Positions 2,811-61,949 of a stretch of 64,000 nucleotides of DNA are shown one piece after another. The position numbers were made by a program, and so were the translations under genes. Source of the DNA: Hormiphora californensis (taxonomy: Eukaryota > Animalia > Ctenophora); NCBI GenBank assembly GCA_020137815.1, contig CM035355.1, positions 310,001 through 374,000 of the forward strand. The letters run 5' to 3'. The notes under the pieces were generated by a model. It was given only the letters and a program-made list of their open reading frames with translations. It was not told the origin of the DNA and made no database searches. The first letter of the stretch is position 1, and every line of letters starts with the position of its first letter.

Positions 2811-3418
2811 CTAGATCCAAAAACCAAACAAGTTTGGTGGATAGCCGGGGCCGCAGAAATTTAAAAACGTGCGAAAGTTTTGATACATGAACTTTCGGGG
2901 CCTGGGGTGCTGTTAAATTCGCGTTTCCACGATTATAACCAATAACATTTTCAAACTATACGCCAGGAAAACTAGTGCAATGATCAAATCATTAATTTAT
3001 TCCACATTATCATAAATACAGATCCACACATGTCACATATATTTACTGTGCACAGTGTGTCGTTTCAGAGTCTGTTTAACAGAATAATATTAATATGATA
3101 ATAATAGTGTGTTTTGAAAGAACCGCTGACTATCATGGAAACGCGAATTTAACAGCACCCCAGGCCCCGAAAGTTCATGTATCAAAACTGTGCACAGTGT
3201 GTCTGTGCACTGTGCACAGTGTGTCGTTTCAGAGTCTGTTTAACAGAATAATATTAATATGATAATAATAGTGTGTTTTGAAAGAACCGCTGACTATCAT
3301 GGAAACGCGAATTTAACAGCACCCCAGGCCCCGAAAGTTCATGTATCAAAACTTTCGCATGTTTTTAAATTTCTGCGGCCCCGGCTATCCACCAAACTTG
3401 TTTGGTTTTTGGATCTAG
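2811..3418. mobile_element. MITE with ~120 bp TIRs, TA flanks and an internal direct duplication
   Basis: CTAGATCCAAAAACCAAACAAGTTTGGTGGATAGCCGGGGCCGC... is inverted at ~3300-3418, with TA on both sides. ~3047-3190 is repeated directly at ~3210-3353. Confidence 0.75.
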
Positions 3419-25979: not shown

Positions 25980-26579
25980 CTCTCTTTCTCTCTCACTCTC
26001 TCACATCCCTCTATCGTTATTCCCTTTCCCGCATTTATAAATAAATGTATTAGCTGCGGTTCATTATTCGATTCTAATTAATGTCTCACATAAGTTAAAT
26101 CATAAACATCATGAGGCCTGAGGGTTTAAATAAATTCAACTTGATTATGCTAAAACAAAGTACTATGATCGAATTGATTAATGAGTAATGACGTCGCTCA
26201 ATACAGTTTTAAAGTGACTCATTATGTACCTACTTATTTTATCTTGATGGACGGCACAAACAAGACAGCGACATTTAGAACGTAAGTATGCATTATATTT
26301 TCATTTAACGCACTTTCTCACCAAAGACTTAAAGTCTGATGGACTCTAAACTAAAATATATGTTTTCTTTGTTTTATGAGTTTGTCATTTATTCAAAGTA
26401 ATTCATGAATCATGGTGGGCTCATCTTTATACAGGGCTCTATAAAACTCCATCGAGCTCAGTGTAACTGGAATCCTTGCAGAAAAACAAATAGAGTCCAA
26501 CATGAGTAACTGGCAAGTTTTGAGTGGCATGTTACAAACAAACTAGCAAATACACATACTATACAAACAAACTAGTTGG

Positions 26580-26880
26580 AAAGTTCATGTGTTGCCACGC
26601 TTGATATTAGTCTCATCTTCAATAGTTGATAGAAGTTTATGGACAACTGAGACAATGATTTTATTGCAGGAAATAAATCACACGACGGTTTCGTCGAACA
26701 TCAACATCATCAGGCTGCTCAAATTAATTTGTTTAAAGTAGTGTTAAAAAGTTTGAAGTTTCAAACTTTTCAATTTAATTTGAGCAGCCTGATGATGTCG
26801 ATGTTCGACGAAACCGTCGTTTGATTTATTTCCTGCAATAAAATCATTGTCTCAGTTGTCCATAAACTTCTATCAACTAT
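26580..26880. mobile_element. Inverted-repeat insertion (Penelope pLTR/retrozyme-like) with hammerhead cores and spliced-leader-like centre
   Basis: Inverted arms 26622-~26757 and ~26755-26880. A 12-bp direct repeat CAAACTAGTTGG at 26568-26579 and 26881-26892 is the probable TSD. Each arm reads SL-like + CAGC-CTGATGA-TGT(C/T)G..CGAC-GAAA-CCGTC + downstream AATAAA. Confidence 0.7.
26786..26822 (+). ncRNA. Minimal type I hammerhead ribozyme motif (variant with an extra U after A9)
   Basis: AGC-CTGATGA-T-GTCG-ATGTT-CGAC-GAAA-CCG-TC-GTT: catalytic core, 4-bp stem II, very short stem III, predicted cleavage after C26818. Mirror copy on the minus strand at ~26681-26716. Confidence 0.55.
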
Positions 26881-27067
26881 CAAACTAGTTGGGCAGATAT
26901 AACATTTCACAACACCTGTTATAAATCGATGGACTGCTCATAGGCTATGACATAGCCTAACATAATATATGTCATTTTTAAAATTGAGTTTGAGTCGGGG
27001 GTCCGAGTGAGTCAAATAAAATATTCTGAGAAAAAAAGCTTGGAAAGAGATTTTTCTCTCTCCCCCT

Positions 27068-31181: not shown

Positions 31182-32722
31182 TCAAAAGCTAGCTTCCCTT
31201 TTGTGTACTACAATTCTTGTGTCTGCTATTCTCCTTTTTGTACAAAATGAAAAATGAGTGTACAATTTACAAATTGGCATGAGTGTACATTCTGTTCTCT
31301 CAGATCTGTCTCAAATCCATATTTCGATGGCATTCGATATTTCCCACCTACCCTTGGTAATGTAGAGGTAGAAGAAGTCAATGTAGAGGACAGTCTGGAC
31401 AACTCCGGCCACAACAGCAATGGGGTCAAAGAAGGACTCGGTGTAGAATCGGAAGATCCAGTTTAGGATGTAGAGGCCACGGTACGCTCCCAACATGAAC
31501 AAGTAATGGCTGAGGGGTTAGAGAGATAGTGGAATAGAAAAGTTAATTACTTTCTTCTTGCAATAATTTATCGTAAGGAGTTATAAAAAAGAGAAGAATT
31601 GAAAGAAATAAGAAGGTTTCAATTTGCCACTAGATGGTCACCTGGTAATGGTTTCTGCCTCTCCGGTTTTGGACATCATGAAGAGCTGAGGAAGGATCGC
31701 ACCAGCCTCAAGATAGATGGAGAACGTCCAGAGAATCTGAAATCGGGTTTTAATCAAAATTTGGGATAAATTCTAAGAAACGTCTGTATTTCCTTCTACA
31801 CTGCATGGCCAATTTGGAACCTAGGCACTGGACAGTTTCTTGTGTGCTAGAAGAAACCATATTATGGAACTAGGTTCAACAATCAACATTCTAATTGCAT
31901 AGTTGCTAATGCTCCTACTGCACAGTTGCTCCTGCTAATTACACAGTTGCTAGTGCTCCTGCTAACTGGAATGTTTCTCCAGCTAATTGAACAGTTGCTA
32001 ATTGCAATGTTGCTCCTTCTAATTGCTGTACTACCTCAGAGAAGGTGAAAGAGTGGTTGAGGATCAGGGCCAGGATCAGACAGGGTCCAAGAAGGAACTC
32101 CACTCGGAAGGTATCATGGTTACTATCATAGGTTGATTTAAACTTCATGAAGATCAGGTAGCATGTTCCTGAAAGAGGATGTGTTTGTTGGTTACAACAG
32201 GTGGGAAGGGGTCAGTAGAAATAGGCGTGAGCGTGTGTACACTGGAACTACTTATAACACATGGTGCCCGACTCTCTCTCTCTCTTTCTACTAGAATAAA
32301 TTATAATAGTACCACTTACCGACACTGCAGCAGATGTAGATAATTTTCATGCCAGTGTTATAGAGGGAGACAAAGCTGAAAAACAAATCCAAATAACGAG
32401 TACAAAATACTGCGGCGAACAGAGCCTGAGATTTACCCGAAATTCCTGAGGGAAAATAATCATTTAGGTACAAAAACAATGTGACTAGTCTACCTAAGTA
32501 ATAGGAAACGTTATTCTTATCTAAGGAACGGCATGTTACCCCTCTCAAATAACAGACGTCACAGGGTAAAAGTTAAAGTAACTTTGGCATGCTCTATGAC
32601 ATAAAATTGAAATCGGAACATTTGGGTTTACCTGCACAAGATCGTGTCTTCCATATCTTTAGAAGTAGGATTACAATAGCTGCCAAATGGCTAAGATCTC
32701 CCGCCAACCGGAACAGATTCAT
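31182..32722 (-). CDS. KDELR: ER lumen protein-retaining (KDEL) receptor, canonical copy; 6 exons
   Basis: Exons 32722-32632, 32445-32320, 32168-32035, 31736-31642, 31509-31352, 31207-31182 (GT-AG, in phase). [37 protein letters not shown]...TRYLDLF...DTFRVEFL...[18 protein letters not shown]...[21 protein letters not shown]...[17 protein letters not shown]. The terminal exon frame is uncertain (VHKREASF*, or VHKGKL.. if one A is an error). Confidence 0.93.
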
Positions 32723-34544: not shown

Positions 34545-36546
34545 CTACAGAACCGAGTTCATTTGTTCCCTTGGAGAGAACTTTAGAAGTGGGTCTGTCT
34601 CTTTCGGGTCGTCCGGTAAATGCGGAATAAGGCGGGACTTTTCAAGATGTTGGTCCGGGTTGTTTTGTTCAACACGCAAAGGGCAGTCTAGCTTGGCAAG
34701 GTCTGGGTTGGCACCGAAGAAGAAGAAGTAGAAGAAGAAGCCAATGTAGAGGACAGTCTGGACAACTCCGGCCACAACAGCATAGGGGTCAAAGAAGGAC
34801 TCGGTGTGGAATCGGAAGATCCAGTTCAGGATGTAGATGCCACGGTACGATCCCAACATGTACAAGTATAAGCTGAGGATAAGGTTGGAGATAGTGAAAT
34901 GGAAAAAGTAATCAATTTCTTCTTGCAATAATTCATCGTGAGGAGTTATAAAAAAGCGAGGAATTGAGAGAATAAGAAGTTTTCAATTTGCCACTAGATT
35001 CACCAGGTGATTCTTTCTGCCTCTCCTGTTTTGGACATCATAAAGAACTGAGGAAGGATCGCACCAGCCTCAAGATAGATGGAGAATGTCCAGAGAATCT
35101 GCAATCGGGATATTTAATATTTAGTCAAAATTTGGGATAAATTCAATGGAACATCTGCCTGTAATTCCTTCTACCTACAGTTACGGCCAATTTGTTTCTT
35201 GCACGCTAGAAGAAACCCCATTATCTATTATTGCATGGTTCAACAACTTCAATTGCACAATCTACACTGTAAACTATCTCATTGTGTGGCCCCGGTGCCC
35301 GGATTATAAAAATTTTCGATAAATACGGATTTCAGGTGTCAATTTTGCTGCCAAAATTTTTTCAATTTGCTGCCGATTTGCTGCCTCGTGAATCGAAATT
35401 TGTCCGATGGCAGTCCGCGATCGGTCCAATTGCTGCTGGCAGCATAATCTTATCTAAAAAAAGGTCACCGGTTAGATCAATTTGCTGCCTCGCCCTTGAT
35501 TTGCTGCCAAATTAAGGGCATTGATCTCTTGGGTATTTGCAATATCCGGGCACCGGGTGTGTGGCTCACACCGTCATTTTATTTCAAAATGCGAGCGTGA
35601 TCTGTGATGGTTCTGTAGATCAACTCATACCTCAGAGAAGGTGAAAGAGTGGTTGAGGATCAGGGCCAGGATCAGACAGGGTCCAAGAAGGAACTCCACT
35701 CGGAAGGTATCATGGTTACTATCATAGGTTGATTTAAACTTCATGAAGATCAGGTAGCATGTTCCTGAAAGAGGATGTGTTTGTTGGTTACAGCAGGTGG
35801 GAAGGGACTGGTTAGAAATAGGGTCAGGCGTGAGCGTGTGTACACTATACAGTATACTGAAACAACAACAATAAGTCTAAACATATGTTGCTCGACCCTA
35901 GAGAGCCCTTTCTAAGAAGGATACAACAAATTATGCAACTTACCGAGACTGCAGCAGATGTAGATAATCTTCATGACAGTGAGATAGAGGGAGACAAAGT
36001 TGAAAAACAAATCCAAATAACGAGTACAAAATACTGCGGCGTACAGAGCCTGAGATTTACCCGAAATTCCTGAGGGAATATAATAATTTAGTTACAAAGT
36101 TTTCCCCTTTTATTCTGTAACCCTATTGAAACTGATGAGCTAGTACTTACTATCGAAACAATTGTCATTCCATAAACTCGTGTTTTGTTTTGTTTGAAAC
36201 CCCAGAGAATCCAAGTTCTCTGTAGAGTTCTCTCTGAGGATTGACTCCCCAAACCAACACAGTAATAATAATTTAGTTAGGTACAAAACCAAAGTGAATA
36301 CCTAAGTAATAGGAAACGTTATTCTTATCTAAGGAACGGCATGTTACCCCTCTCAAATAACAGACGTCACAGGGTAAAAGTTAAAATAACTTTGGCATGC
36401 TCTGATGACAATGTCATCATGACATAAAATTGAAATCGGAACATTTTGGGTTTACCTGCACAAGATCGTGTCTTCCATATCTTTAGAAGTAGGATTACAA
36501 TTGCCGCCAAATGGATAAGATCTCCATCCAACTGGAAAAAATTCAT
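34545..36546 (-). CDS. KDELR: KDEL receptor paralog, divergent, with novel ~50 aa C-terminal tail; 5 exons
   Basis: Exons 36546-36456, 36069-35944, 35764-35631, 35098-35004, 34872-34545. Exons 1-4 have the same lengths as copy 1 and all splice sites are intact. Open frame [15 protein letters not shown]...[25 protein letters not shown]...QMNSVL*. Confidence 0.8.
35291..35557. mobile_element. MITE with 8-bp TSD in intron 3 of KDELR copy 2
   Basis: TSD TGTGTGGC (35283-35290, 35558-35565). TIR CCCGGTGCCCGGAT / ATCCGGGCACCGGG. Internal TTTGCTGCC repeats. Absent from copy 1. Confidence 0.8.
36095..36264 (+). mobile_element. 170-bp retrozyme/Penelope-like insertion with a type I hammerhead core, in intron 1 of KDELR copy 2
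   Basis: 15-bp TSD ATAATAATTTAGTTA (36080-36094, 36265-36279). Absent from the paralogous intron of copy 1. Contains CTGATGA-GCTAGT-ACTT-ACTATC-GAA-ACAATTGT-C (36132-36166) with palindromic stem III ACAATTGT. Confidence 0.7.
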
Positions 36547-37692: not shown

Positions 37693-40600
37693 ATGGACAA
37701 CTCTAACAGCCTTAAGTTGTTTAAAGAAGTAAGTAACTCGTTTTGATGCCGCTTTTTAAGTCTCAAAATATTAGAAGTATTCAAATTGTAACCACACCCT
37801 CCCTTCCTCAGGCCACAGTCGCCAAGTTATTACAAGAACATTTCAGTAATCAGAAAACAAAATGTAAGTTATTTTGGGGGGTATATGGGTTGTCAAGATA
37901 TTTTGCCATCTGAATCGCTTATCGTAATCAAATTGCATTTTGTTAGCTTAACTACATTATATCTGCATTTTGTAATTGATGAATCGTTTACTCCCAATAA
38001 TTTATCTTCAGTTGTTTGGCTTAAGATGATAATTGTTGTTATATCATTGAAGTACCATTGAAAGCTGTACCCACGATTGTTATTTTACGTTTTTCTAGTA
38101 TGAAACTTATTTTACTAACAGTTGGATTTCTCATTATTACCGTTCACTGCTCAAGAGACCCTCATTCAGTACTTGGCGTGTCACGCGGTGCCAGTAAATC
38201 AGAAATTCAGAAAGCCTACCGAAAACTTGCTCGGAAGTACCACCCCGACGTGAGTACGGAACCTAATGCTGAGGATAAATTTACTGAAGTAGTCGCTGCG
38301 TATGAAGCACTGACAAAAGAACCAGAGCCCCAGCAACAACAACATCGATCACGTAGTTATCAGCAGGAGTTTTATTTCAATGGACAGCGATACACATTCT
38401 CCAGTGGCGGTGGCTTTAATGGTTTCCACTTCAACGATAACTCTCGGAGGGAGCCTCATAAAGACTCGCCTATTCTCACTGTCAAGAGGTTTGAACAGGA
38501 GGTGTTACCGGACAGTTACTCAGCTGTTCACCTCGTTAAGGTCACCTCAAGGTGGTGCTTCCTATGCATGGAGTATGATAGGGCATGGCCTGACGTTATA
38601 AAACACTTTAAACCCTATCACATGAGTTTCTGGGAATTACCCTATGACTCATCTAACATGCGTTCCAAGATCTCAGTTTATGAGATACCTTCGTTTCTGG
38701 TGATAATATCAGGTCGAGTTTATCATTACACATCCATCCTGTCAATCGGGAACCTCGAGGCGTTCATCTTGTCTAAACTACAGTCGAACCTTGTGATTGA
38801 GCAGGTAACTGATAGGAGTGTGGATAACTTTGTCGGAGACTTCACAGACTACAAAGCTAAGTTGATATTCGTTTCAAAGAAGTTATCATTTAGCCAGGCG
38901 ATGGCAGCGTTTAAATACAAAGATCACTACAAGTACGGGCTCAGCTCCACTGCGAGTGATGAGGGAGCCAATTTACATCAGCTGCTACCTAGAGGGGAGG
39001 GTGTTATCATTTTCAAGGAGGATTACCCCGCCATCAGTAGGAAGGATAGTCCAGGCACAATCGATCAAATGATACGGATTTTAGACTTGGAGAAATCGCT
39101 GATTTTACCCAAAATTAGCTCTCCTCAAACATTCGATGAGACCTGCAAAGTCTCGGACACCCAGCCGTGTGTTATATTTGTATTCGAATCTAAAGCGGAT
39201 TACAGCACGACACGATCTCTCATTCAAACTGGGGAATTGGTCTTCAAACGAAACTACCAGTTTTCCTTCCTATACCGGGATGCACAATTCCAGTTTATTG
39301 AATCCTTCTACCCGCCATACCCAGTGAGTAACACTCTCATTCTCTGGAGACACTCCTACAAGACGGCACAATTTACCTGGCTGCCCAGATGGGACCTCCT
39401 CAACGTGGCTGTCCTCTACCAAAACCTGAAATCATCCAGTCCCGGCGGGTTGATAACCCTGGGAACGATCACCAACGAACACGCTCCCTCAATAGTTGAC
39501 AATATCATCGAGTTCTTCAGGTATTCAGGGGAGAGCATCATAGCCCAGGTTCACGTGATATCCCTCAACACCTGGCTATCAATCATCAGCATCATCACCT
39601 TGTTCTGTGTGACCTTCCTCATCAACACTGAGCAGCCCCACCAGGATCGACATGACGGGCAACAGGAGGAACAAAGGACATTCAGACGTAACACGCCCTC
39701 TGTAGAGCTGTTGGAGCTAAATGAGGGCACGATATCACGATTACTTCCCACTGGGAGATCCCAGATATCCCTTCTAATAGTGTGTGATAGGAGGAATGAT
39801 GTGGCACTTCCTGTGAAGGTTGTGTCTGCTCAACTGAAGGAGCTAGCCAGGACCAGTAATTTCCAACTTGCTACTGTCTCCCAATCCGACTACAAGAGTT
39901 GGTTGTTACGTTTTGCTGAGCACGCCGGGTGCAGGCTAATTGAGGGTTCGGTGATTGCAGTTAACTTTAACAAGAAGTATTACAACTTTTTTACACCGGT
40001 CAATATGTGTTCCAATAGTTCTCTCGGTAACCTGCAAGATCGGGTAACGCTGTGGTTTGAGAGGTTGTGCGAGGGCAGTTTGCCGCGGTTTAATCTTGAG
40101 AGTATGGAACTACCCACTATCTCGACGTGATTATATAATAAATGACGGATATATTCTATATATTTGTGTGTATAAATTTGTTATTTTCTTGTTTAACTTA
40201 ATTTGATTCCACTTCTTTCCTTTGAAATTTTGCAATTTTTGTTAACTTTGCCCCAACTCTAAACCAACTCCCAACACCGCTAACCGCTCTGTACACATAG
40301 TTGGTTTTATTGGAGGGATTATGGAGGTAACTGTAATACGTGATCCAGTACCCAGTAAGTATTGTCAAGAGATTCCTTGTTACACACACAATCCCAACAC
40401 TACATTTAGAAACAGACGCACTGTCTCTTATTGACAGTCATTTACTGTCAATACGTGATCTACAGTTCACGAGATAGTTCCTTCAGTGTGTTAGTTTCTC
40501 AGTAGGTGTTGTATTGTGTGTGTAAGCAGGGAATGAATTCATTGTAAGTAAGAGTGTAACATATTGTGTGTACAGTGGTACTATCCTCCACAGTACATAC

Positions 40601-41275: not shown

Positions 41276-44200
41276 ATGACACTCAGCTTCATGGACGAGT
41301 TTAACTTTTCACAGACCTACGCCACACCTCAGACAGAGGAGTGTACAAAATGCTCAAAACTAAACACAGAGGTAATGTTGGACCTAGTGAGGCTAGTATT
41401 GCTATCTCTTCGGGAGAGTTTAGAAAAATTATTATTCGGATTGTTAAATTCTTCAGACTAATGATAACAAAGTTAGCCCACTATCACAAACATGTTTTGA
41501 ATTCTCTTTCAGAACACAGAGTTAAAGAATCTGCTGGCGACAATGAAGCAACAAGCGGCCAAGACTGGTGAAGTGCTGAAGAAATTCAATGCGGTCTTGA
41601 AAGGGAGTCAAGCCCAGAAACAGAAAATTGAAATGGTGAGTGTTACACAGTTTATCTTTTTGTTATTCCACGACCTTTTTCAATTTTCGAGCGTATAATA
41701 CCCTCTCCGCTGTCTCTACCAAGTGAGGGAACATATATGAAAATTTAATTAATGTTCCTAACATCCTTCTCCCTCTTCCCAGTTGGAACGACGCGAGGAA
41801 CAGAGATCAGGAGAGCTCCAAATGGTTCGATCGCAACTGAAGCGAGCCCTTGATAACCCCGGGGAAGACTACCAGAGGAAGATAAAACACCTGGAATCAG
41901 AGCTGGCCAATGAGAGAAGTGCTAGTGGTCACGTGAACAGACAATTTGATACCCTCCAGAAGCAGATTGAATCTCTGGACGAGGAGAGAAAGGGTCTGGC
42001 GAAGGAGAAGGCGAGCCTCAAGAAGAAGCTGGAGTACATCACTGTTAAGTGTAATAAAGCGGAGAAAGCAGCTAAACAGGCACCTGCATCATCTGCATCA
42101 GGTGCTTCAGCAGTATCTGGTGGTGGTGGTGATGAGGGGTCGAAGTTGGCTGATCTGAGGAAGGAGATGGGGGTGTTGAAAAGGGAGAACACCCGTCTTC
42201 AGAACTTCAACGAGACGAAGATAAATGACCTGGCTGACAGGAAGAATAAAGACATTACAGCCCGACTCACCAGTATGGAATCCATGATGCAGAGTATGAT
42301 GGAGAGCATGAGGGATAACGTTGCTGCTACCTCTGCTGCTGCTGGTGTCAGAAACACCTACAGAGGTACCCCAAAGATGTCGCCCAGTGGCAAGAGGATG
42401 GGACGACCTCCCAAACGACGTTTTCCCTCTCCAGAACCGAGTGAGGTTGAGGAACCCTCAACACCCCCACCTCGGTTCAAGAAGCCAGTAACACGGCCTC
42501 TAATGAGGGAGACCGCCCTAACAGATGACTCCGCATCTGATGGTGAGCTAGCAAGTCAATTGGAGTCTTCTCTGAACGATGTGTTGATCTGTGATCCCAT
42601 TCTCAAGACACCACCAAGGAAAAAGAGGGGTCGCCCATCCACCAGAGCTACATCTCAAGCTGCCGTACAAGCCATGGCAGTTGCTATATCAGCTAGGAAA
42701 GCAAAGGAAGCAGCTCCTTCACCATCTGGAAATACTCCTTTACCAACTGCAACAGAAAAGGTGGCAACTAACACTCCATCCTCTCAACCATCATCATCTT
42801 CCCGGCAATCCACCAGTTTCCAATTCCCTACCAGCGCCATATTCGATCTATTCCTACCGCTCCCAATCATCACACCCCTGGAAGCTCCAGTAACAGTCGG
42901 AGAATCATCCGCTGTTAGTGAGAGTCCGATAATTCCCCGTGAGTCAGCTGATACACCAGTTAAATCCGAGTTGAGTTCTTCAACAGCATCCCCCGCGGCG
43001 GTGAAGGCAGAACCTGCGGTGGACCCTGTGGTACCTGCCCCCAAACCAAGTTTCATACCGGTCCGGTTTGTGAAGGCAACGTCAGCTGTTCAACCTGTTA
43101 AACCTGTTCAACCTGTTGAACCAGTCAACATGGCTAAACCTGTTGAAATTGCTAAACCTGTCGTAGTTCAACCTGTGGTAGTTGAACCAGTTGAAATCGT
43201 TAAACCTGTGGTAGATGAACCTGTTGTTGAACCTGGTACTCCGGTGAAAAATGAACCTGAACCTGCAGATCTCCCAGTCATCTCTCTTGAACCTGAACCT
43301 GTAGGAACACCTGTGAAGGGTGAGGCATTCGAACCTGCTGTGAAACAAATCCCTGAAGTGGAGGAGAAACCTCTCACAAAGTTGGAACCTCTTCCAGTTG
43401 TTTCCGATCCAGTGGTAACAACTGTAACAACACCTGAGCCCGTATCACCCGCCGCTCCTTCCCTTGTTCCAGTTGCAAAGCCTGAAACTACCGCCGCTCC
43501 TACTCCTGTGACAAAGCCTGAAACTCGCGAAACACCTGTTCCCGAAACCGCTCAGGTTCCTCTCACTGTGGCGCCTGTTCCCGAAACCGCTCAGGTTCCT
43601 CTCACTGTGGCGCCTGTTCCCGAAACCTCCCCGGTTCCTGTGGAACCAGTAACCCCTGTCAAACAGGAGGTAGCTCCCAGCAATGGTCCTGCAACTCCGA
43701 CCAAAGAGGAGCCAGTACCAGTGCCGTTTGGTAGCCCTGATTTCCAGCCGATTTTCATCAAAAACAGGCGGGTCCGGTCGACTCAGCCAGTCCTAACCCT
43801 CCCTCCCATTATAATCCCTCCTGTGAAGAAGGAAGAGAAGGTTGAGGTAGAGGTGGAGGTGGAGGATGAGATATCAGTGATATGTGATCTCTCTGGGAAT
43901 GGAGATCAGGTATCAACAGCGCAACTAAAAACATCTCCAAAAACCCCAGAAGATACCCCTGTTGAAGATACCCCTGTAGAGATGGCCCGTCCTGTCACTC
44001 CTCCCCCTGCATTCCACGCATCGTTCTCTGATACAATAGTCACTGCTAATGACATGCAGTGTGCATTTGAAGTTGACGTGTTATCCACCAACAGTGAGAG
44101 GAAACTGAGACGAGTTCAGAAGATGTTGAACTCGGAGGGAAAAGGGGCGTCTCCTACAAAGAGGTTACGAAGAAGAACTATTAGTTTGAGTGAACCAGGA

Positions 44201-47113
44201 TTGAAGAAAAGAAGGACGGCCAGTACTGACAAGAAGAGCGGTGTGAAGAAGGGAAGTAAAAAGGACCAAGTGAATGGAATAGAACCAGTGGTAAATGGTA
44301 ATATCACAGTATCTCAAGACCTCCCCGAGCTATCCACCACTTTGTCTAGTTCAGCCACAGTATCTCAAGAGCCTGGCCTCTCCTCTTCCACCACAGTCCA
44401 GACGCTGTCTAGTTCAGCCCCAGAAGTTGCAGTCCCAGTTGCCCTAGAGGTTTCAGTGCCAACAGAAGACGTCTCGTGCGATGATGTGCCTCTAGCTATT
44501 GTTTGTGGAGATGATGAACCCTCCACATCCACCGCTACGGATATCCCACCGCCTGTTGAGGAGGTGGAACCATCCAGAAAAAGGAAGAAATCCACAGCTC
44601 CTATAGTGGAAACTATCTTCGACCTCTTCATTCCCCTTCCTCAGATTACTAAACCTGATCTAACCACCACCACCCCCGCTCCACCAACTCCTGCCCAGCC
44701 CCTCAACTCTGTCCCACTCCAACCCTCTGTTGTGACAACACCAGACGGACTACGCTTCCTGCCTGGATACGAAGATTACGAAGATGTGAGGTGTGATAAG
44801 AAAGTTGGGCAGCTCATCACTGAGATGTTTAGGAGGAACATGTACGACAGTGATCCTGATTTGGGGTACCTTTACCGGACATTGGTCTACAACATTCAAC
44901 ATGGTAATATTATTCAGCCTGATGTGAAGTTTTGTGCTGTCATCAGGAATGAGATTGTCATCAGAAACGGGATTGAAACAGCTCAAGCCCCTCCTCCTGT
45001 CTCTGTCCTAGTGGAGTTCTTCCACTCTCTTCTAACCAAGATTTCTGAGGCATGTCCCGGGTTTGGTAATGATGTCTTGAAGCAATTGTTCATGAAACTA
45101 ACAAAAGGTGGAATTAACTTTGATAATCGGATACCGACAATGTTCCAGTTTTGTGTCCAACTTTCCACCGCCATGTCAAGTTTTGAAGATCTCCGTGCTC
45201 ACGTGATCCGGGTTATCCTCCGGAAAACCATCCGGAATTCCTACCAACTGATGAGCCAACTAAACCAGATCACCACAGAGGTCATGCTAGGTGTTAGCAG
45301 TCCTAAAATGAACAGGAAGGACAACTTGCTGCACTTGTTGGGGTTGGAGTTCTTCCTGAGGTATGGTAAGGTGAGGTATAACCCTGCTACCACACAGTGG
45401 GGTTATGTTCACCAGTTTAATGTTGAACACAGACTGATAAAGAGGGCTCTAACTGCTGTTACTACTAAAGGAGAGGACGACTGTGGAACTGATGAGCAGG
45501 TCAGTACAGAATACACACGCTTACACACTGGTATGTAGCGTCTTGGACTGTTAGTTACATTCTGTGTGTAGACCAGTGGTGGCCCCAGCCTGGGGTGGTG
45601 GGGGGGTGGCCACCCCCCCAAAACTTTTCAAACAGGGGTTGTTGGGGGTGGTAAAATAGCTTTAAAATGTGTTCTAAATTGCTTTAAATTGATCAAAATC
45701 TTAAATTTTCCGGGGGCTTCGCCCCTAACCCACACCAAGGGCTGAAAATCGTTAGAATATTGTTCTAAATTGCTTAAAATTGATCAAAAACTAAAATTTT
45801 CCGGGGGCTTCACCCCTTACCCACACCAGGGGCTGAACATCATTAAAAAAGTTTTCTAAAAGGGCTGAAAATTGCCCCCACCAAGGGCTGAAAATCGACA
45901 AAATATTGCTCTAAATCGCTTTAATTCATCAAAATTTCCGGGGGCTTCGCCCCTTGTGACTGAAACTCGTTGAAAAAGTTTTCTAAAAGAGCTGAAAAGT
46001 GTTAAAAAAGTTGCTCTAAATTGCTTAAAATTCATCAAAAACTAAAATTTTCCGGGGGCTTCGCCCCCTAGCCCCCACCAAGGGCTCTGCCCCTGGACCC
46101 CGTTGGGGGGCTGCGCCCCCCAAACCCCCTGCCGCAGCTCCCTCGGCGCCGCTTTGCGGCACCTCGGTCGCTAGGCTTGGAGTTGAAGTGTGGCCTTTGG
46201 CCACACCACCCCCCCCAAAAAATCCGGGCTGGGGCCACCCCTGGTGTAGACGTGTATAAAACTAAAAACGGTATCTGTTTAGATGTCATTCATCACTTTG
46301 CATAAACATCTGGCTAGTTTATTATAGTCTTTTCTCTTCCAGCTGAATGTTGCACTATTCCTGTGTGTAGAAACAGTGTAACTATCAACGAACTAATCTA
46401 TATAAAACTTCTCTCTCTTCAGGGTTTATTGTGTCTACGATTGATGGCTAAATCACAGACCTGGGATTGGGTTATTGGTACCCTTCCTACCTGAAATGTT
46501 CAAGGTTTTGGAAAGTACCACGGAGTACGGTGTATCAAGGTGAGTGTGTAATTAGTAATCACCCCTCTAATGATTAGGATCTAATTAGTGTATGATACAT
46601 TTTGAAATTATACTTAGTTCAGCTAACCAATTAATTCACAGGATGTTGAGTGCAATCAGTCACCTAATTGTCTCTGAGATAACGGATAACAGGGCTGATA
46701 TTGCTGTCATCAGAGAACGACTTGTACCCTGTATCATTGATATTGCATCTTCAGGTACTAGCACAGTTGCCGCGAGCCGCAGTACAAAGCAAACAATCCG
46801 GGTTTAAAATGTCTGCGCGCCATTCAATATCACATGACCTTATTTGGGAAAATGCCAATTTATTTGTCTTCAATTGACACCGTGACAATTGTGCTGGTTT
46901 ATTAACCCCTATTTCCCTCCTTCAGGACCTACCGAGGATGTCAAGATGTCAGCTATAGGATGCTTGGTTGATGTCTATCCAATTTCCCCAGAATCTATCC
47001 GACCCGTCTTGCAACACTGGCATAATGTGAGAAACACAGCCCGCCACATGATATCAGACAGTGACAGTTTCAGAGAACTAGAGAAATGTGTGTTGAAAGT
47101 TTTAACCAAATGA
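41276..47113 (+). CDS. ICE1: Little elongation complex subunit 1 (ICE1)-like; 6 exons
   Basis: Exons 41276-41371, 41513-41635, 41783-45499, 46423-46539, 46642-46754, 46926-47113. N-terminal CxxC (CTKC) plus coiled coil, long P/S/T/E-rich disordered middle, and a C-terminal helical domain (LRLMAKSQTWDW...KMSAIGCLVDVYPISPESIRPVLQHW) resembling the ICE1 C-terminus as recalled. Needs one +1 correction at CCC 46481-46483. Confidence 0.72.
45574..46243. mobile_element. hAT-type MITE in ICE1 intron 3
   Basis: 8-bp TSD GTGTAGAC (45566-45573, 46244-46251). TIR CAGTGGTGGCCCCAGCC / GGCTGGGGCCACCCCTG. Internal tandem AAATTTTCCGGGGGCTTCGCCCC units. Confidence 0.85.
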
Positions 47114-58164: not shown

Positions 58165-58710
58165 CTAATCCTCTGACAATAATCCCTCAGGATCTTCCTC
58201 AATCAAATCCCTCAAACTGGGAGAACTGGCAATCAACAACTCTGAACACCGCACCATATCGATCGACAACTCCGAACTAACTGAACTTGTTTCACTCGGC
58301 CCGTCTCTCTCAACATTACTCCGTGCCATCCTCAGCATATCCTTTAGGACATTAGTGGAGATTGTCACGTACGCATCCCGAGTATCCCCGCTAGGAAACT
58401 CATCCTCCCCAGGGATGTGCACGAGGCTGTTCCGCTGATAAAACATGTGCTTTGTAACAAACTGCTTGAATTGTGGATCGAGGGATGATTTCTTTATTTT
58501 CTCCCCAGCTGGCATTTTCTTGGATGTCACAGGGGGAAGAAAGTGCTGAGCAATCAATATCTCCACATGTTTAGTGCTGATTACAACTAGTTCAATATCT
58601 GAGACGAGAAGAAGACGCTCCATTAGTTTGTCCACATCTATCTCAGTGAGGAGTCGTCGACTGGATAGGGCCAGGGGCGAGGGGACATCTGGAGTTGTAG
58701 GGGTTGTCAT
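58165..58710 (-). CDS. Orphan family protein, paralog 1 (181 aa, intronless CDS)
   Basis: Open ORF aligning with the 59025-59747 and 61156-61761 products (LLVSDIELVVISTKH, KKSSL, YQRN.LVH.PGED.F, RCSELLIASSPSLRDLIEEDPEGLL). Acceptor TTTTTAG 4 nt before the ATG. Confidence 0.75.
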   Translation of the reverse strand: MTTPTTPDVPSPLALSSRRLLTEIDVDKLMERLLLVSDIELVVISTKHVEILIAQHFLPPVTSKKMPAGEKIKKSSLDPQFKQFVTKHMFYQRNSLVHIPGEDEFPSGDTRDAYVTISTNVLKDMLRMARSNVERDGPSETSSVSSELSIDMVRCSELLIASSPSLRDLIEEDPEGLLSED

Positions 58711-59024
58711 GGTGCTAAAAATCTAAAATGGGAAAAGCGTTGATTTTAGTTCGTTACAGTTGATAGCAAACTCGACAATCGTTACCACAATTCAAAAACA
58801 AACCGCAATCAATTCAAAATTATTAAAGCTCTTTAAATAAAATTTACAAACATCAAAAATACCCAAATACAAAATACCCAATACGCAATATGCAAAAACA
58901 AATTATCCGTCTTAAATGCTCAAATCTACAGTTCGCATAGTTCCATTTTTCCTTAGGCATCCCGCTGAATGCTAGATGCCTTTATGATTTCTTGGTTTTC
59001 TTTGACATCAAATTTATCCAATCT

Positions 59025-59747
59025 CTACCACTGGAAATTTTCTGGTGGGGAACGCTGAAATACCTCATCACATAATAATCCCTCTGGATCTTCTTCAATC
59101 AACTCCCTCAAACTGGGGGAACTTGCGAGCAATAAATCAGAACATCGCTTCATTTCATGGGACAACTTCCACAATCCAATGTGATTTTTGTGAACCTTCG
59201 GTACAGTTTCTACAAAGCTACTATTTGGATCCTCAGGACCCTGAGCAACAAAATCGAAATACACTTCTCCACTAATCAAGTCCTTCAGAACACCGGCACA
59301 GATCGACATGAAAGCATCCTTGCCCTCTTTTGTAGTAAAGTTGTCTTCACCCGGCGTGTGGACAATATAGTTCCGTGGGTACACTATATTTTCTATGATA
59401 TATTTTTTCATATCTTCGTTAAGAAATGATTTCTTTACCAACATACCCCCTGTTAACCTTTTACTGGATAGATAATTTGTAGGAAATAAAGTAAAACGAT
59501 CCACGATAATAGTATCTAGATATTTGCTGATGATCACAACCAGTTCAATATCAGTAACTAAAAGAAGGTCTTCCATAAGATCATCCACATCAGTCTCAGT
59601 CTTGAGAGGTCGACTAGATAGGGGCGACGATATCTCTTGAAGTATCTGCCGGGGTGGCTCACATTTGGGGGCTGTTATAGACATGGCTTTCTTCGCTTTT
59701 TTCTTCGCCTTCAGGTATGCCTTCTTTCTGGCCCGTCGAGTTTTCAT
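59025..59747 (-). CDS. Orphan family protein, paralog 2 (240 aa, basic N-terminus)
   Basis: Open ORF with the same conserved blocks. K/R-rich N-terminus MKTRRARKKAYLKAKKKAKK, which is NLS-like. Confidence 0.78.
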   Translation of the reverse strand: MKTRRARKKAYLKAKKKAKKAMSITAPKCEPPRQILQEISSPLSSRPLKTETDVDDLMEDLLLVTDIELVVIISKYLDTIIVDRFTLFPTNYLSSKRLTGGMLVKKSFLNEDMKKYIIENIVYPRNYIVHTPGEDNFTTKEGKDAFMSICAGVLKDLISGEVYFDFVAQGPEDPNSSFVETVPKVHKNHIGLWKLSHEMKRCSDLLLASSPSLRELIEEDPEGLLCDEVFQRSPPENFQW

Positions 59748-60146
59748 GGTCTAACTCTAAGGACAAGAAATTGGAAGTAAAATTATTCAAATGGAATAGC
59801 AATACAGAAAAACATCTCCACTGAAGAAATATATACAGCAAACTATGTAAAATATGACTCGTGAAAAAGGGCAAATAAGTCCACTAAAATTCAGATAAAA
59901 TACAAAATTGCCTGGCTAGACTGTGTTTCGGGCGCCCCGTACAAATGTAAAGGGAGGGTTAGAACATAACAAATACAAAAGGCCCGCCCGTGTCTTGTTA
60001 CACGTGTTGCATATGCAATCTGCAATAATCAAGTTGTTACTGTTTTGTTGATGTTATGGACAATTGAGACTCGGTGTATATACAGTATACACGGTATGTT
60101 GAGGAAGTGGCTGACCGTTGTCACCACAAGTGGCAAGTTCGTTTTA

Positions 60147-61149
60147 CAGGGTGTCCCACTGTCTTTGCGTGACCTGAGATTTTGGGTCATGACCGGGCTC
60201 CATTAAATTAACCAAAACTCATCGAAAAATTGGTCAAAATGGTTCTAACAAAAACCAGTGTTCTAGAGAATTGTCTGGCGAACATTTTAGTTGCAAGATT
60301 GACTTTCCAAGTCTTACTAATCGTCAGATATATCGTCGTAAAGTCAAAATTACGTGTTCATGAAATCTGACCGGGGTTCACGTTTTGAAAAATTCACAAA
60401 TGCAAAGTTGCTCGGATCACATTGCATTCCTCATAAGAGTTGTAGGAAATTGTCTGGCGGTCATTTTGGTACCCGGGTTTTTATCCTAGCTCAATGTTTA
60501 GAGTGTCTTATGACTGTCAGAACTGGAATTTTCCCTAAAGTGCTCTCAGGTATCGCATTGCATTTTGCCCTGTTATGAAGCTCATAGCTGCTTGAATAAC
60601 ATCTTAGTGCATGATAGGGTTGAGATAGACCACTTGCGTATCCTACACATTAACAGGGGCCTTGCCAAATCGTCATAACAACCCTGTCAAGTGTCTAGAT
60701 GAAATTGAGATGATATGTGCTGATTATCATGGGATTACACACGACACCGAGCCACCTAATTAGGGGTTGTGAGCCGATACCAACTAAGACTCAGCATAGA
60801 AAAATCTTCATGTTCCTACAGTCATAACGCAACTTAAACGCAGAGGTATGAAAAAAAAACATGGTATCAAAATGAACATTAGACGATTCCAATGAAGCTC
60901 TTGTAAATTTCAAATCATTTTACCCATTTGTTGATGACACGTTTGTTTTTGACTTTAGGACGATATATCTGACGATTGGTAAGACTTGGAACGTCAATCT
61001 TGCAACCAAAATGTTCGCCAGACAATTCTCTAGAACACTGGTTTTTGTTTGAACCATTTTGACCAATTTTTCGATAAGTTTTGATTAATTTGACGGAACC
61101 CGGTCATGACCAGTAATCGCAGGTCACGCAAAGACAGTGGGACACCCTG
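60147..61149. mobile_element. Tc1/mariner-type non-autonomous element, ~200 bp TIRs
   Basis: TA|CAGGGTGTCCCACTGTCTTTGCGTGACCTG ... CAGGTCACGCAAAGACAGTGGGACACCCTG|TA. Arms stay similar to ~60350 and ~60945. Confidence 0.85.
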
Positions 61150-61155
61150 TACTAC

Positions 61156-61761
61156 TCACCACCACCATAATCCTGACAATAATCCCTCTGGATCTTCTAC
61201 AATCATCTTACTCAAACTGGGTGAACTGGCGAGCAACAAATCCGAACACCGCTTCATTTCAGGAGCCATGTTCCAATTGCGAAAAATTTCCCTTGCCTCA
61301 ACATGGCCAGATTGCATTTCTATTCCAGATTGGACTTTTGTAATAAGGCCATCAAAAGGTTTCCTATTGTATTCTCCGGTGAGCATTTCCTTCAATATAC
61401 TGGTACATGTAGATATGAAACGCATCCCTGACCTCCTTTGTAGCAAAGTTATCTACACCTGGTGTATGAACCAGATCGTTCCGCTGGTACAGAATGTGAA
61501 CTGATATCAACTTTTTCATACCTTCATTTAGTGATGATTTATTCACTTTCATACCGGCTGTTAATCTTTTACTAGAAATATATCCAGGAAGGAAACGGTC
61601 CACAATAACAGTCTCTACATGTTTACTGGTGATCACAACCAGTTCAATATCCGATAAGGGCAGAAGACCTTTCATTAGTTCGTCTACATGACTCTCAGTC
61701 TCGAGAGGTCGACCAGATAGGGGCGACGATATCTCTTGAAGTATCTGCTGGGGTGGCTCAC
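61156..61761 (-). CDS. Orphan family protein, paralog 3 (5' end lost in the gap; one +1 frameshift)
   Basis: ..EPPQQILQEISSPLSGRPLETE..LSDIELVVITSKH..RDAF / ISTCTSILKEM..MKRCSDLLLASSPSLSKMIVEDPEGLL. The frame switches at AAA 61418-61420. Confidence 0.65.
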
Positions 61762-61861
61762 NNNNNNNNNNNNNNNNNNNNNNNNNNNNNNNNNNNNNNN
61801 NNNNNNNNNNNNNNNNNNNNNNNNNNNNNNNNNNNNNNNNNNNNNNNNNNNNNNNNNNNNN
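61762..61861. other. Assembly gap (100 N)
   Basis: Run of n. Confidence 1.
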
Positions 61862-61949
61862 TACCGAATCAGGAAATACTGGTCCTGATTGGCTGATAAC
61901 CAGTCACATGACCATAATACTTTTTACTTTGTTTGGTCGGTTCTTCCTG
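61862..61949. repeat. Short interspersed repeat (HVTGYQPIR-type)
   Basis: ACCGAATCAGGAAATACTGGTCCTGATTGGCTGATAACCAGTCACATGACC...GGTCGGTTC. A shorter relic AGGAACCGAC..GTCGGTTCCTG lies at ~22882-22912. Recalled as an abundant Pleurobrachia repeat, not verified. Confidence 0.5.

Follow-up and report, generated by a model that had tools for sequence, protein, structure and literature searches.

A spliced-leader-headed repeat with a hammerhead-like motif, inserted head to head in the genome of Hormiphora californensis: a putative non-autonomous Penelope-like retroelement

Introduction

The subject of this report is a 301-bp inverted pair of short repeats in a 64,000-nt stretch of the genome of the ctenophore Hormiphora californensis (GenBank assembly GCA_020137815.1, contig CM035355.1, positions 310,001 to 374,000 of the forward strand), which is referred to below as the window. 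Each arm of the pair carries a copy of the ctenophore spliced leader (SL), followed after four nucleotides by a motif resembling a minimal type I hammerhead ribozyme. The pair is one insertion of a multi-copy, SL-headed repeat of ~180 nt, in our judgement probably a non-autonomous retroelement of the Penelope-like element (PLE) type, whose RNA would have been trans-spliced ahead of the hammerhead motif and reverse-transcribed uncleaved.

The closest described systems are the PLEs themselves. In the passages of PMC8557442 cited here, PLE insertions have an inverted copy at the 5′ end and a tail of 30–40 bp on one end. A consensus of the minimal hammerhead ribozymes (min-HHRs) of PLEs is given in the cited sections of PMC4209133 (Cervera and De la Pena 2014), in which copies 100–700 bp apart on opposite strands are described and poor cleavage is noted for the published min-HHRs on their own; the portion of its supplement file 2 considered here contains no ctenophore name. 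According to the same sections, an intron of the D. virilis Penelope ends at a 2-bp helix I, and the ribozyme contexts of spliced and unspliced RNA differ. In the Poseidon element PAc of Anolis (PMC11167929), cutting and extension take place on both target strands, the RNA used as substrate is mainly uncleaved, the ribozyme needs its protein for cleavage, and the tail is the interval between two start sites of the reverse transcriptase (RT). A step left open in that study is head-to-head joining.

Leaders have also been found in retroposed or transposon sequences. In dinoflagellates, SL-relic retrogenes are formed when the leader is written back into DNA by retroposition (passages of PMC12014239), and the Cer1 messenger RNA (mRNA) receives SL1, the full-length 8-kb Cer1 RNA not being trans-spliced (passages of PMC3315495). 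Each ingredient of the present locus has a precedent, and the combination was not found in print: no paper describing an SL-headed hammerhead retroelement was found in a search of mostly open-access literature. The locus links three fields that have been studied apart, namely SL trans-splicing, PLE hammerheads and the mechanism of PLE insertion. The role of the minimal PLE hammerheads is an open question, on which a splice junction at helix I bears directly through the difference between spliced and unspliced RNA.

Results

Contigs from sequencing runs, designated X with a number, were placed on 26350–27040 (four runs) and on 26555–26729 (X2, X5, X6 and X11). X5 represents organism A, and X6 represents organism B, which is related to the window organism. 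X1 gives no cover of the flanks, which is not taken as absence. The seawater runs X12–X20, of small share, are left out of the analysis. The features of the pair in window coordinates are as follows.

26568–26579, plus strand: target-site duplication, left copy, 12 bp (exact repeat; X6 contig joining 26567 to 26881).
26580–26621, minus strand: 42-nt 3′ tail, present in the minus arm only, its end being the main 3′ end of the family (arm comparison; loose ends at 26580–26583 in 4 of 4 runs).
26622–26683, minus strand: body 3′ of the predicted cut, with AATAAA within a predicted hairpin; 26622 is the second 3′ end (sequence, loose ends, folding).
26684–26713, minus strand: minimal type I hammerhead-like core with CUGAUGA, an extra U, a 5-bp helix II, GAAA, a 1-nt loop 3 and GUC (descriptor).
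26714–26717, minus strand: CAGC linker, 5′ strand of helix I, of which CAG may be a second splice acceptor (sequence; acceptor-like contigs).
26718–26757, minus strand: SL exon copy, last 40 of 43 nt, 1 mismatch (PMC8527503 leader; alignment with L088 and other loci).
26757–26784, plus strand: SL exon copy that starts at the first nucleotide, lacks 15 nt internally and has 1 substitution (leader alignment).
26785–26788, plus strand: CAGC linker (sequence).
26789–26818, plus strand: hammerhead-like core, predicted cut after 26818 (descriptor).
26819–26880, plus strand: body to the second 3′ end, without the tail, private G>T at 26821 (arm comparison, contigs).
26881–26892, plus strand: target-site duplication, right copy (exact repeat; empty-site contig).

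The match between the two 12-bp direct repeats that flank the 301 bp extends no further on either side. The minus arm is 178 nt long (26757 down to 26580) and consists of 40 nt of leader, CAGC, the hammerhead-like core and the body. The plus arm of 124 nt (26757–26880) has the same order, with the deletion in its leader, and stops 42 nt earlier at its 3′ end. This difference in length is absent from an earlier account of the window, made by a model from the letters without database searches (hereafter the sequence-only reading), whose arms, coordinates and motifs were otherwise as described when re-read from the sequence. Its plus-arm leader with a deletion has to be adjusted: the deletion is real and falls between two CAA triplets, but the start lies at the A of 26757, which is common to both arms, while the preceding G is part of the minus arm and not of the plus arm.

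The order leader, CAGC, CTGATGA is common to both arms, and cuts are predicted after 26818 (+) and after 26684 (−). The inverted segments, 26622–26731 and 26771–26880, are 110 nt long and 97% complementary; the bodies differ at 2 of 96 positions, to which the leader changes are added. At 26703 (−), the window has a private C>T, where all other depth has the C that restores a C-G pair of helix II, and the window base at 26821 differs from the majority of contigs. Each arm thus carries one private change. An ATG stands at the start of helix II, and its frame ends after 9 codons. Neither arm bears a poly(A) or simple-repeat tail, and the lack of poly(A) is likewise a point that the sequence-only reading missed; the outer ends of the insertion carry no inverted repeat, and no second copy of the element was found within the window.

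The 301-bp pair was inserted, with duplication of 12 bp of the target site. One contig of X6 (organism B), with a depth of 7 and 57 letters on its short side, runs from 26567 straight on to 26881, and 12 of its letters agree with either side. A single 12-mer thus occupies the empty site, in agreement with the sequence-only reading, which had taken the inverted pair between direct repeats as an insertion. Contigs of X5 (organism A) enter an arm from each flank in the expected orientation, with 25–29 element-side letters, which is below the 31-letter rule. The insertion site looks intergenic, though short exons could escape detection; the nearest Pfam-recognised exons in the scanned interval of 19–34.5 kb are those of a KDEL receptor gene at 31314–32572, ~4.4 kb off. 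As separate observations, a sequence of 14 nt that overlaps the target site has a second copy 29 nt upstream (26531–26546 / 26560–26575), length variants occur at 26552 among the X5 haplotypes, and the target holds an 8-bp palindrome.

The 138-nt body belongs to a multi-copy family in two organisms. In X5 and X6, the summed depth, which is not a copy number, reaches thousands to tens of thousands over the body against at most ~400 on the flanks, and this excess indicates that the body is multi-copy in both organisms. Among the matches listed, the family has a sharp main 3′ end at 26580–26583 with unrelated flanks (6 contigs in X2, 5 in X5, 23 in X6 and 12 in X11) and a second 3′ end at 26621–26622 (1 contig in X2 and 2 in X11). 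The flanks at the 3′ end are AT-rich but diverse. The two arms of the window locus end exactly at these two 3′ ends, 42 nt apart. Further contigs among the matches listed contain the tail only and leave at 26613–26624 (8 in X5, 8 in X6 and 7 in X11); in them, a tail of 36–44 nt is joined on its 5′ side to unrelated sequence, as if the tail inserts or is displaced alone.

Nine further joints between a minus arm and a plus arm were found elsewhere, 8 of which are distinct (5 in X1, 3 in X5 and 2 in X6, one row being shared), and only 2 distinct ones have a side of at least 30 letters. The occurrence of joints at other positions in three of the four runs indicates that head-to-head insertion is a habit of the family. 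The inverted pairing of PLE type named in the sequence-only reading is borne out by a family with PLE-type ends and further head-to-head joints. No head-to-tail ("go back") joint occurs among the joints listed in the run contigs. The divergence from organism B is 4 of 138 positions in the body and 14 of 168 in the flanks (P = 0.052, two flank contigs only), and is not used as support. Patterns for the core and the tail gave 0 matches in the metagenome, prokaryote-genome and viral collections.

The 40-mer at the head of the minus arm is the ctenophore SL. The Hormiphora californensis leader is published in the passages of PMC8527503 cited here, and the minus arm corresponds to its last 40 nt with 1 mismatch. 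A 22-nt leader pattern scanned over the metagenome collection found at least 121 loci; among the matches listed, the leader lies within 30 nt of the 5′ end in 113 of 121, and nearly all continue into diverse mRNA-like sequence. The published leader and these diverse mRNA 5′ ends agree in supporting the SL identity named in the sequence-only reading, whose first refuting condition, a 40-mer other than the SL of the species, does not hold. From its leader, the window very likely belongs to a pleurobrachiid-type ctenophore. The pattern had 0 matches in the viral and genome collections, and the cited part of PMC7986045 contains no ctenophore leader. The body had no real match among the 121 listed leader loci.

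True SL RNA genes, in which the exon is followed by a GTAAG donor, occur at two of these loci, L088 and L089. They share (around 280–420) an identical upstream region, exon and donor and ~95 nt of common downstream sequence, after which they diverge; the consensus of the X1 loose ends behind 26757 agrees with their upstream sequence. The SL RNA gene is not described in the cited passages of the Hormiphora paper (PMC8527503). In the window, the leader is followed by CAGC, in contrast to the GT donor of L088 and L089, so the locus is not an SL RNA gene, as had been stated.

Other loci also carry the leader behind flanks that are not those of an SL gene (L028, L039, L043 and L065, on contigs of 2.0, 4.6, 5.3 and 5.0 kb, and L072, L082 and L086). 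In the first four, the leader lies near the contig 5′ end and is followed by an open reading frame (ORF) of ~430 amino acids (aa) with Cys/His knuckles. The L043 ORF has 36 unnamed homologues, mostly in unnamed atlas clusters, and its zinc knuckle is weakly supported (1 of 18 homologues scanned, below the cut-off). We take this type of ORF to resemble ORF1 of long interspersed nuclear elements (LINEs); the four loci are possibly full-length LINE-like retrotransposons inserted with an SL. The leader of L072 is at 74–95, two of L072, L082 and L086 lead into ORFs, and in L086 the 5′ part of the leader is altered. This set suggests that leader-headed retrocopies are common in ctenophores, which makes a leader at the window locus less surprising and an RNA-level route more likely. 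The cited passages of PMC8527503 count 718 genomic leader copies (491 in Mnemiopsis) and suggest that they mislead read mapping, with no statement on the sequence behind these copies; the present results indicate that some of the 718 head retroposed elements.

The hammerhead-like motif fits the PLE min-HHR consensus in the core CUGANGA, GAAA and UH, in the extra base between 9 and 10.1, in G10.1-C11.1, in the C-G pair 15.2-16.2 and in a 5-bp helix II. A descriptor of minimal hammerheads, which was built on consensus features with ranges set with the window sequence in view, matched only the two arms in both strands of the window. It found 0 sites in 40 simulated 64-kb sequences scanned on both strands (5.1 Mb), and in 0 of the 121 other leader loci among the matches listed did a core directly follow the leader. 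No variant at the hammerhead core positions is listed in the four runs; helix II shows no variation within the family from which covariation could be read. The third helix I pair of the plus arm stems from its private change. The proposed covariance-model search was negative, in that an Rfam scan gave no hammerhead match at E ≤ 10. The matches of microRNA (miRNA) type, to idnO and to small nucleolar RNA (snoRNA) were below the gathering scores and were rejected as due to the palindrome hairpin.

The overall folding of the sequence is no better than that of shuffles (z from −0.65 to 0.10). In the folding prediction, which ignores tertiary contacts and proteins, a 5-bp hairpin over GAAAC has a probability of 0.67–0.99 and excludes helix II. 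Addition of 14 nt of the leader side widens the predicted energy gap to the hammerhead, and the leader lowers the predicted probability of helix II from 0.28 to 0.00 in the plus arm and from 0.05 to 0.00 in the minus arm. The role suggested for the leader beside stem I is therefore not borne out, since helix I is not extended by the leader and the helix II probability is lowered. The cut site ±1 accounts for 2 of 21 5′ breakpoints, which are not all independent (P = 0.19), and 19 are located at or 3′ of the cut site; this spread may stem from cleaved templates, from stalling of the RT at the hairpin or from a bias in detection. Functional cleavage of the motif is a tentative prediction, which we regard as somewhat doubtful.

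As for the sequence 5′ of the body in other copies, leader|CAGC copies occur in both organisms (X6 record 30 and X2 record 16). One X2 contig leaves the reference right after the AG at 26718–26719 into a pyrimidine-rich run, and one X6 contig has a T-run directly ahead of the linker CAG. An acceptor in place of the leader, for which the sequence-only reading would look in master copies, is thus represented by an acceptor-like X2 contig; the X2 and X6 cases are single contigs and may come from diverged relatives. Loose ends right after leader+C start with the rest of CTGATGAT in 8 contigs of X1 (agreement 0.54) and 10 of X5 (0.52); in X1, a different 4-bp G-C-closed hairpin follows, and the pattern is not clear in X6. 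These ends are a lead to a second family, in which the leader would be joined directly to CTGATGAT without a spacer and helix II would differ, the consensus having low agreement and GAAA not being resolved in it.

Discussion

The membership of the repeat among PLEs is supported by the tail, the inversion and the motif, and it works like a non-autonomous PLE derivative. The one-ended PLE tail of 30–40 bp has its counterpart in the 42-nt tail on one arm, both ends of which are recurrent, and the inverted 5′ copy in this locus and the 8 further distinct joints. In common with the min-HHRs in the cited sections of PMC4209133, the motif has a U-rich lead-in, CUGANGA with an extra base, a long helix II and an AU-rich 3′ side; unlike them, it has a loop 3 of 1 nt, its helix I is very weak, a hairpin competes strongly with it, and an SL stands on its 5′ side. 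As in the D. virilis Penelope, the splice junction would lie at the 5′ end of a 2-bp helix I; the Penelope case is a cis intron of an autonomous element, in contrast to the putative trans-splicing of a 180-nt non-coding element here. The likeness to PAc comprises an ATG with which helix II begins, a tail defined by two 3′ ends and, putatively, the use of both target strands and an uncleaved RNA template. However, PAc is autonomous with a long ORF and tandem pseudo-long terminal repeats (pLTRs), in contrast to the 9-codon ATG frame, the 42-nt tail and the clean 12-bp duplication found here.

The non-LTR retrozymes, as presented in the cited parts of PMC7229834 and bioRxiv 10.64898/2026.07.22.740005, are likewise small, non-autonomous, equipped with a type I hammerhead, proposed to be PLE-derived and flanked by duplications of >4 bp. 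They form head-to-tail tandems with canonical ribozymes and circular RNA, unlike the present copy, which is head to head, minimal and apparently leader-capped, implying a linear template. In the dinoflagellate SL relics, the leader belongs to host genes, whereas here it heads a mobile unit and abuts a ribozyme motif; the latter difference also holds for Cer1, with which the locus would share a transposon RNA that gains a leader.

We infer the following course of events, including trans-splicing, capping and the part of a PLE partner. The cycle would begin with transcription of a source copy that has a pyrimidine-AG acceptor ahead of helix I, and the transcript would gain a capped leader by trans-splicing. 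The RNA would stay mostly uncut, because the hairpin over GAAAC is predicted to outcompete the hammerhead; the cut site is intact in both arms, so the RNA that served as their template was uncleaved. A PLE protein with RT and GIY-YIG domains, acting in trans, would nick both target strands 12 nt apart, and one complementary DNA (cDNA) would be primed at each of the two internal start sites, so that only one of the arms would have the tail. Both cDNAs would reach the 5′ end of the leader and be joined head to head via one shared base, after which the centre of the palindrome would lose 15 nt. Deletions near the centre are known to relax long palindromes, and here the 15 nt lie between two CAA triplets.

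With the leader as a tag, the true 5′ end of the template RNA can be recognised. Both arms reach the leader, the plus arm as far as its first transcribed base, and the minus arm holds the last 40 of 43 nt. The 301-bp locus together with its empty site thus records both RT start sites, the stagger of the nicks and the head-to-head joining. The present copy is probably dead, since only one motif is sense in each transcript and read-through RNA would fold into a 110-bp duplex. An SL-headed jumping RNA would help explain the hundreds of stray leader copies in comb-jelly genomes.

A wider proposal, which we regard as unlikely, is that SL trans-splicing is a working step of the ctenophore PLE life cycle. 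The acceptor would trim and cap read-through transcripts, the leader would turn the ribozyme off and so mark uncut RNA, re-splicing would occur at the AG, several families would have converged on this arrangement, apparently among them the second one, in which the leader is followed at once by CUGAUGA, and many of the 718 leader copies would be explained. If this is true, the element can do without its own promoter and cap.

Several results weigh against the putative non-autonomous PLE derivative. Among the 79 window frames scanned, 0 match RT or GIY-YIG, the element itself holds no such ORF, and the central junction of the locus is bridged by none of the listed contigs. X24, one putative RNA run, covers the leader and almost none of the body, which is not taken as absence. 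The hammerhead-compatible fold lies 6.1–10.6 kcal/mol above the predicted minimum, and the double hammerhead is predicted to be far less stable than its alternatives. Loop 3 is a single C, a length found in none of the 56 published rows considered from the PMC4209133 supplement, and since it is not palindromic, a dimer would carry a C-C mismatch. Helix I consists only of C-G plus G-U (P ≤ 0.02 in the ensemble), and conservation of the core is not significant, although none of the 7 sites that vary in the family falls within the 34-nt motif (P = 0.13). The acceptor-like copies are one contig each. Finally, the depth, which bears on the share of leader-headed copies, falls ~17-fold at 26716/26717 in organism B and ~3-fold in A; part of this fall is an edge effect, and one reading is that the leader is joined at the second AG in many copies.

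An improbable alternative is that the leader is a fixed DNA part of a master element, which would have acquired it on a single occasion, either through retroposition or by inserting where the exon of an SL RNA gene ends, and spread as an SL-headed PLE derivative resembling a short interspersed nuclear element (SINE), without trans-splicing in each cycle. A junction exactly at the leader 3′ end fits such a capture equally well, leader|CAGC copies are present in both organisms, and the acceptor-like contigs may be diverged relatives, as X2 record 10 (which differs at 10 of 92 letters) and X5 record 22 (at 16 of 98) also leave at 26718–26719 into other sequence. However, the first base of the plus arm is the first transcribed base of the leader, which is what a cDNA of the whole spliced RNA would show, and the sequence ahead of the arms differs from the upstream region of the SL gene in L088. 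Unrelated genomic elements with the same leader and different flanks (L028, L039, L043, L065, L072 and L082) also point to a general RNA-level route.

It is quite improbable that the arms derive from a short, ordinary RNA of the host that was trans-spliced and then processed and mobilised through twin priming by a LINE, and that the hammerhead pattern is vestigial or accidental. The free RNA is indeed not predicted to fold as a hammerhead and has no Rfam match, AATAAA and an in-frame ATG are present, and the SL-headed elements with a CCHC-knuckle ORF suggest LINE-like copying of leader-bearing RNAs. Such a host RNA is nevertheless difficult to reconcile with the lack of poly(A), the end of the ATG frame after 9 codons, the absence of descriptor matches in 5.1 Mb, and the two fixed 3′ ends 42 nt apart with tail-only contigs ending at 26613–26624. 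In L1 twin priming, the two arms do not cover the same RNA segment, whereas here both arms do.

An assembly or library fold-back artefact is barely credible: near-perfect inverted repeats can be chimeras, and the listed contigs leave the central junction unbridged, but the arms differ at 2 of 96 body positions and in their leaders, the empty site has a single 12-mer, X5 contigs enter an arm from each flank (with 25–29 element-side letters, under the 31-letter rule), and other inverted joints occur in three runs.

Further candidates were rejected directly: a strict tandem retrozyme, as characterised in the cited parts of PMC7229834, PMC6155905 and bioRxiv 10.64898/2026.07.22.740005, by the head-to-head locus and the lack of a listed head-to-tail joint; a LINE-processed pseudogene or SINE by the lack of a poly(A) or simple-repeat tail on either arm; a miniature inverted-repeat transposable element (MITE) by outer ends that are not inverted repeats; a box C/D snoRNA by the lack of a box D near the 3′ end; a type III hammerhead using the leader by the lack, on inspection, of a fitting NUH or helix I; and a coding reading by the end of the ATG frame after 9 codons.

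Neighboring Features and Minor Observations

At L067 (1–93), the 5′ part of an EF-1alpha mRNA contig recurs in inverted orientation in front of an incomplete leader, which is probably a fold-back library artefact.

In the window, the KDEL receptor exons (Pfam ER_lumen_recept) at 31314–32572 lie on the minus strand, and the frame at 34545–34982 (−) reads like a second copy of the C-terminal part of this receptor, with no Pfam match at E ≤ 0.001. On the plus strand, an open frame of 701 aa with a DnaJ domain at 38025–40130 and a low-complexity open frame of 1258 aa at 41762–45538 each run without introns over their span. Three related open frames of 185, 241 and 179 aa lie in tandem at 58165–61903 (−); the two that were scanned gave no Pfam match, and the third is broken by a 100-N gap. 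At 2885–3353, there is a direct duplication of 164 bp with 100% identity. A 12-mer of the element 3′ end matches at 2885 (+), 3180 (−) and 3344 (−), which is probably due to chance or to an unrelated repeat.
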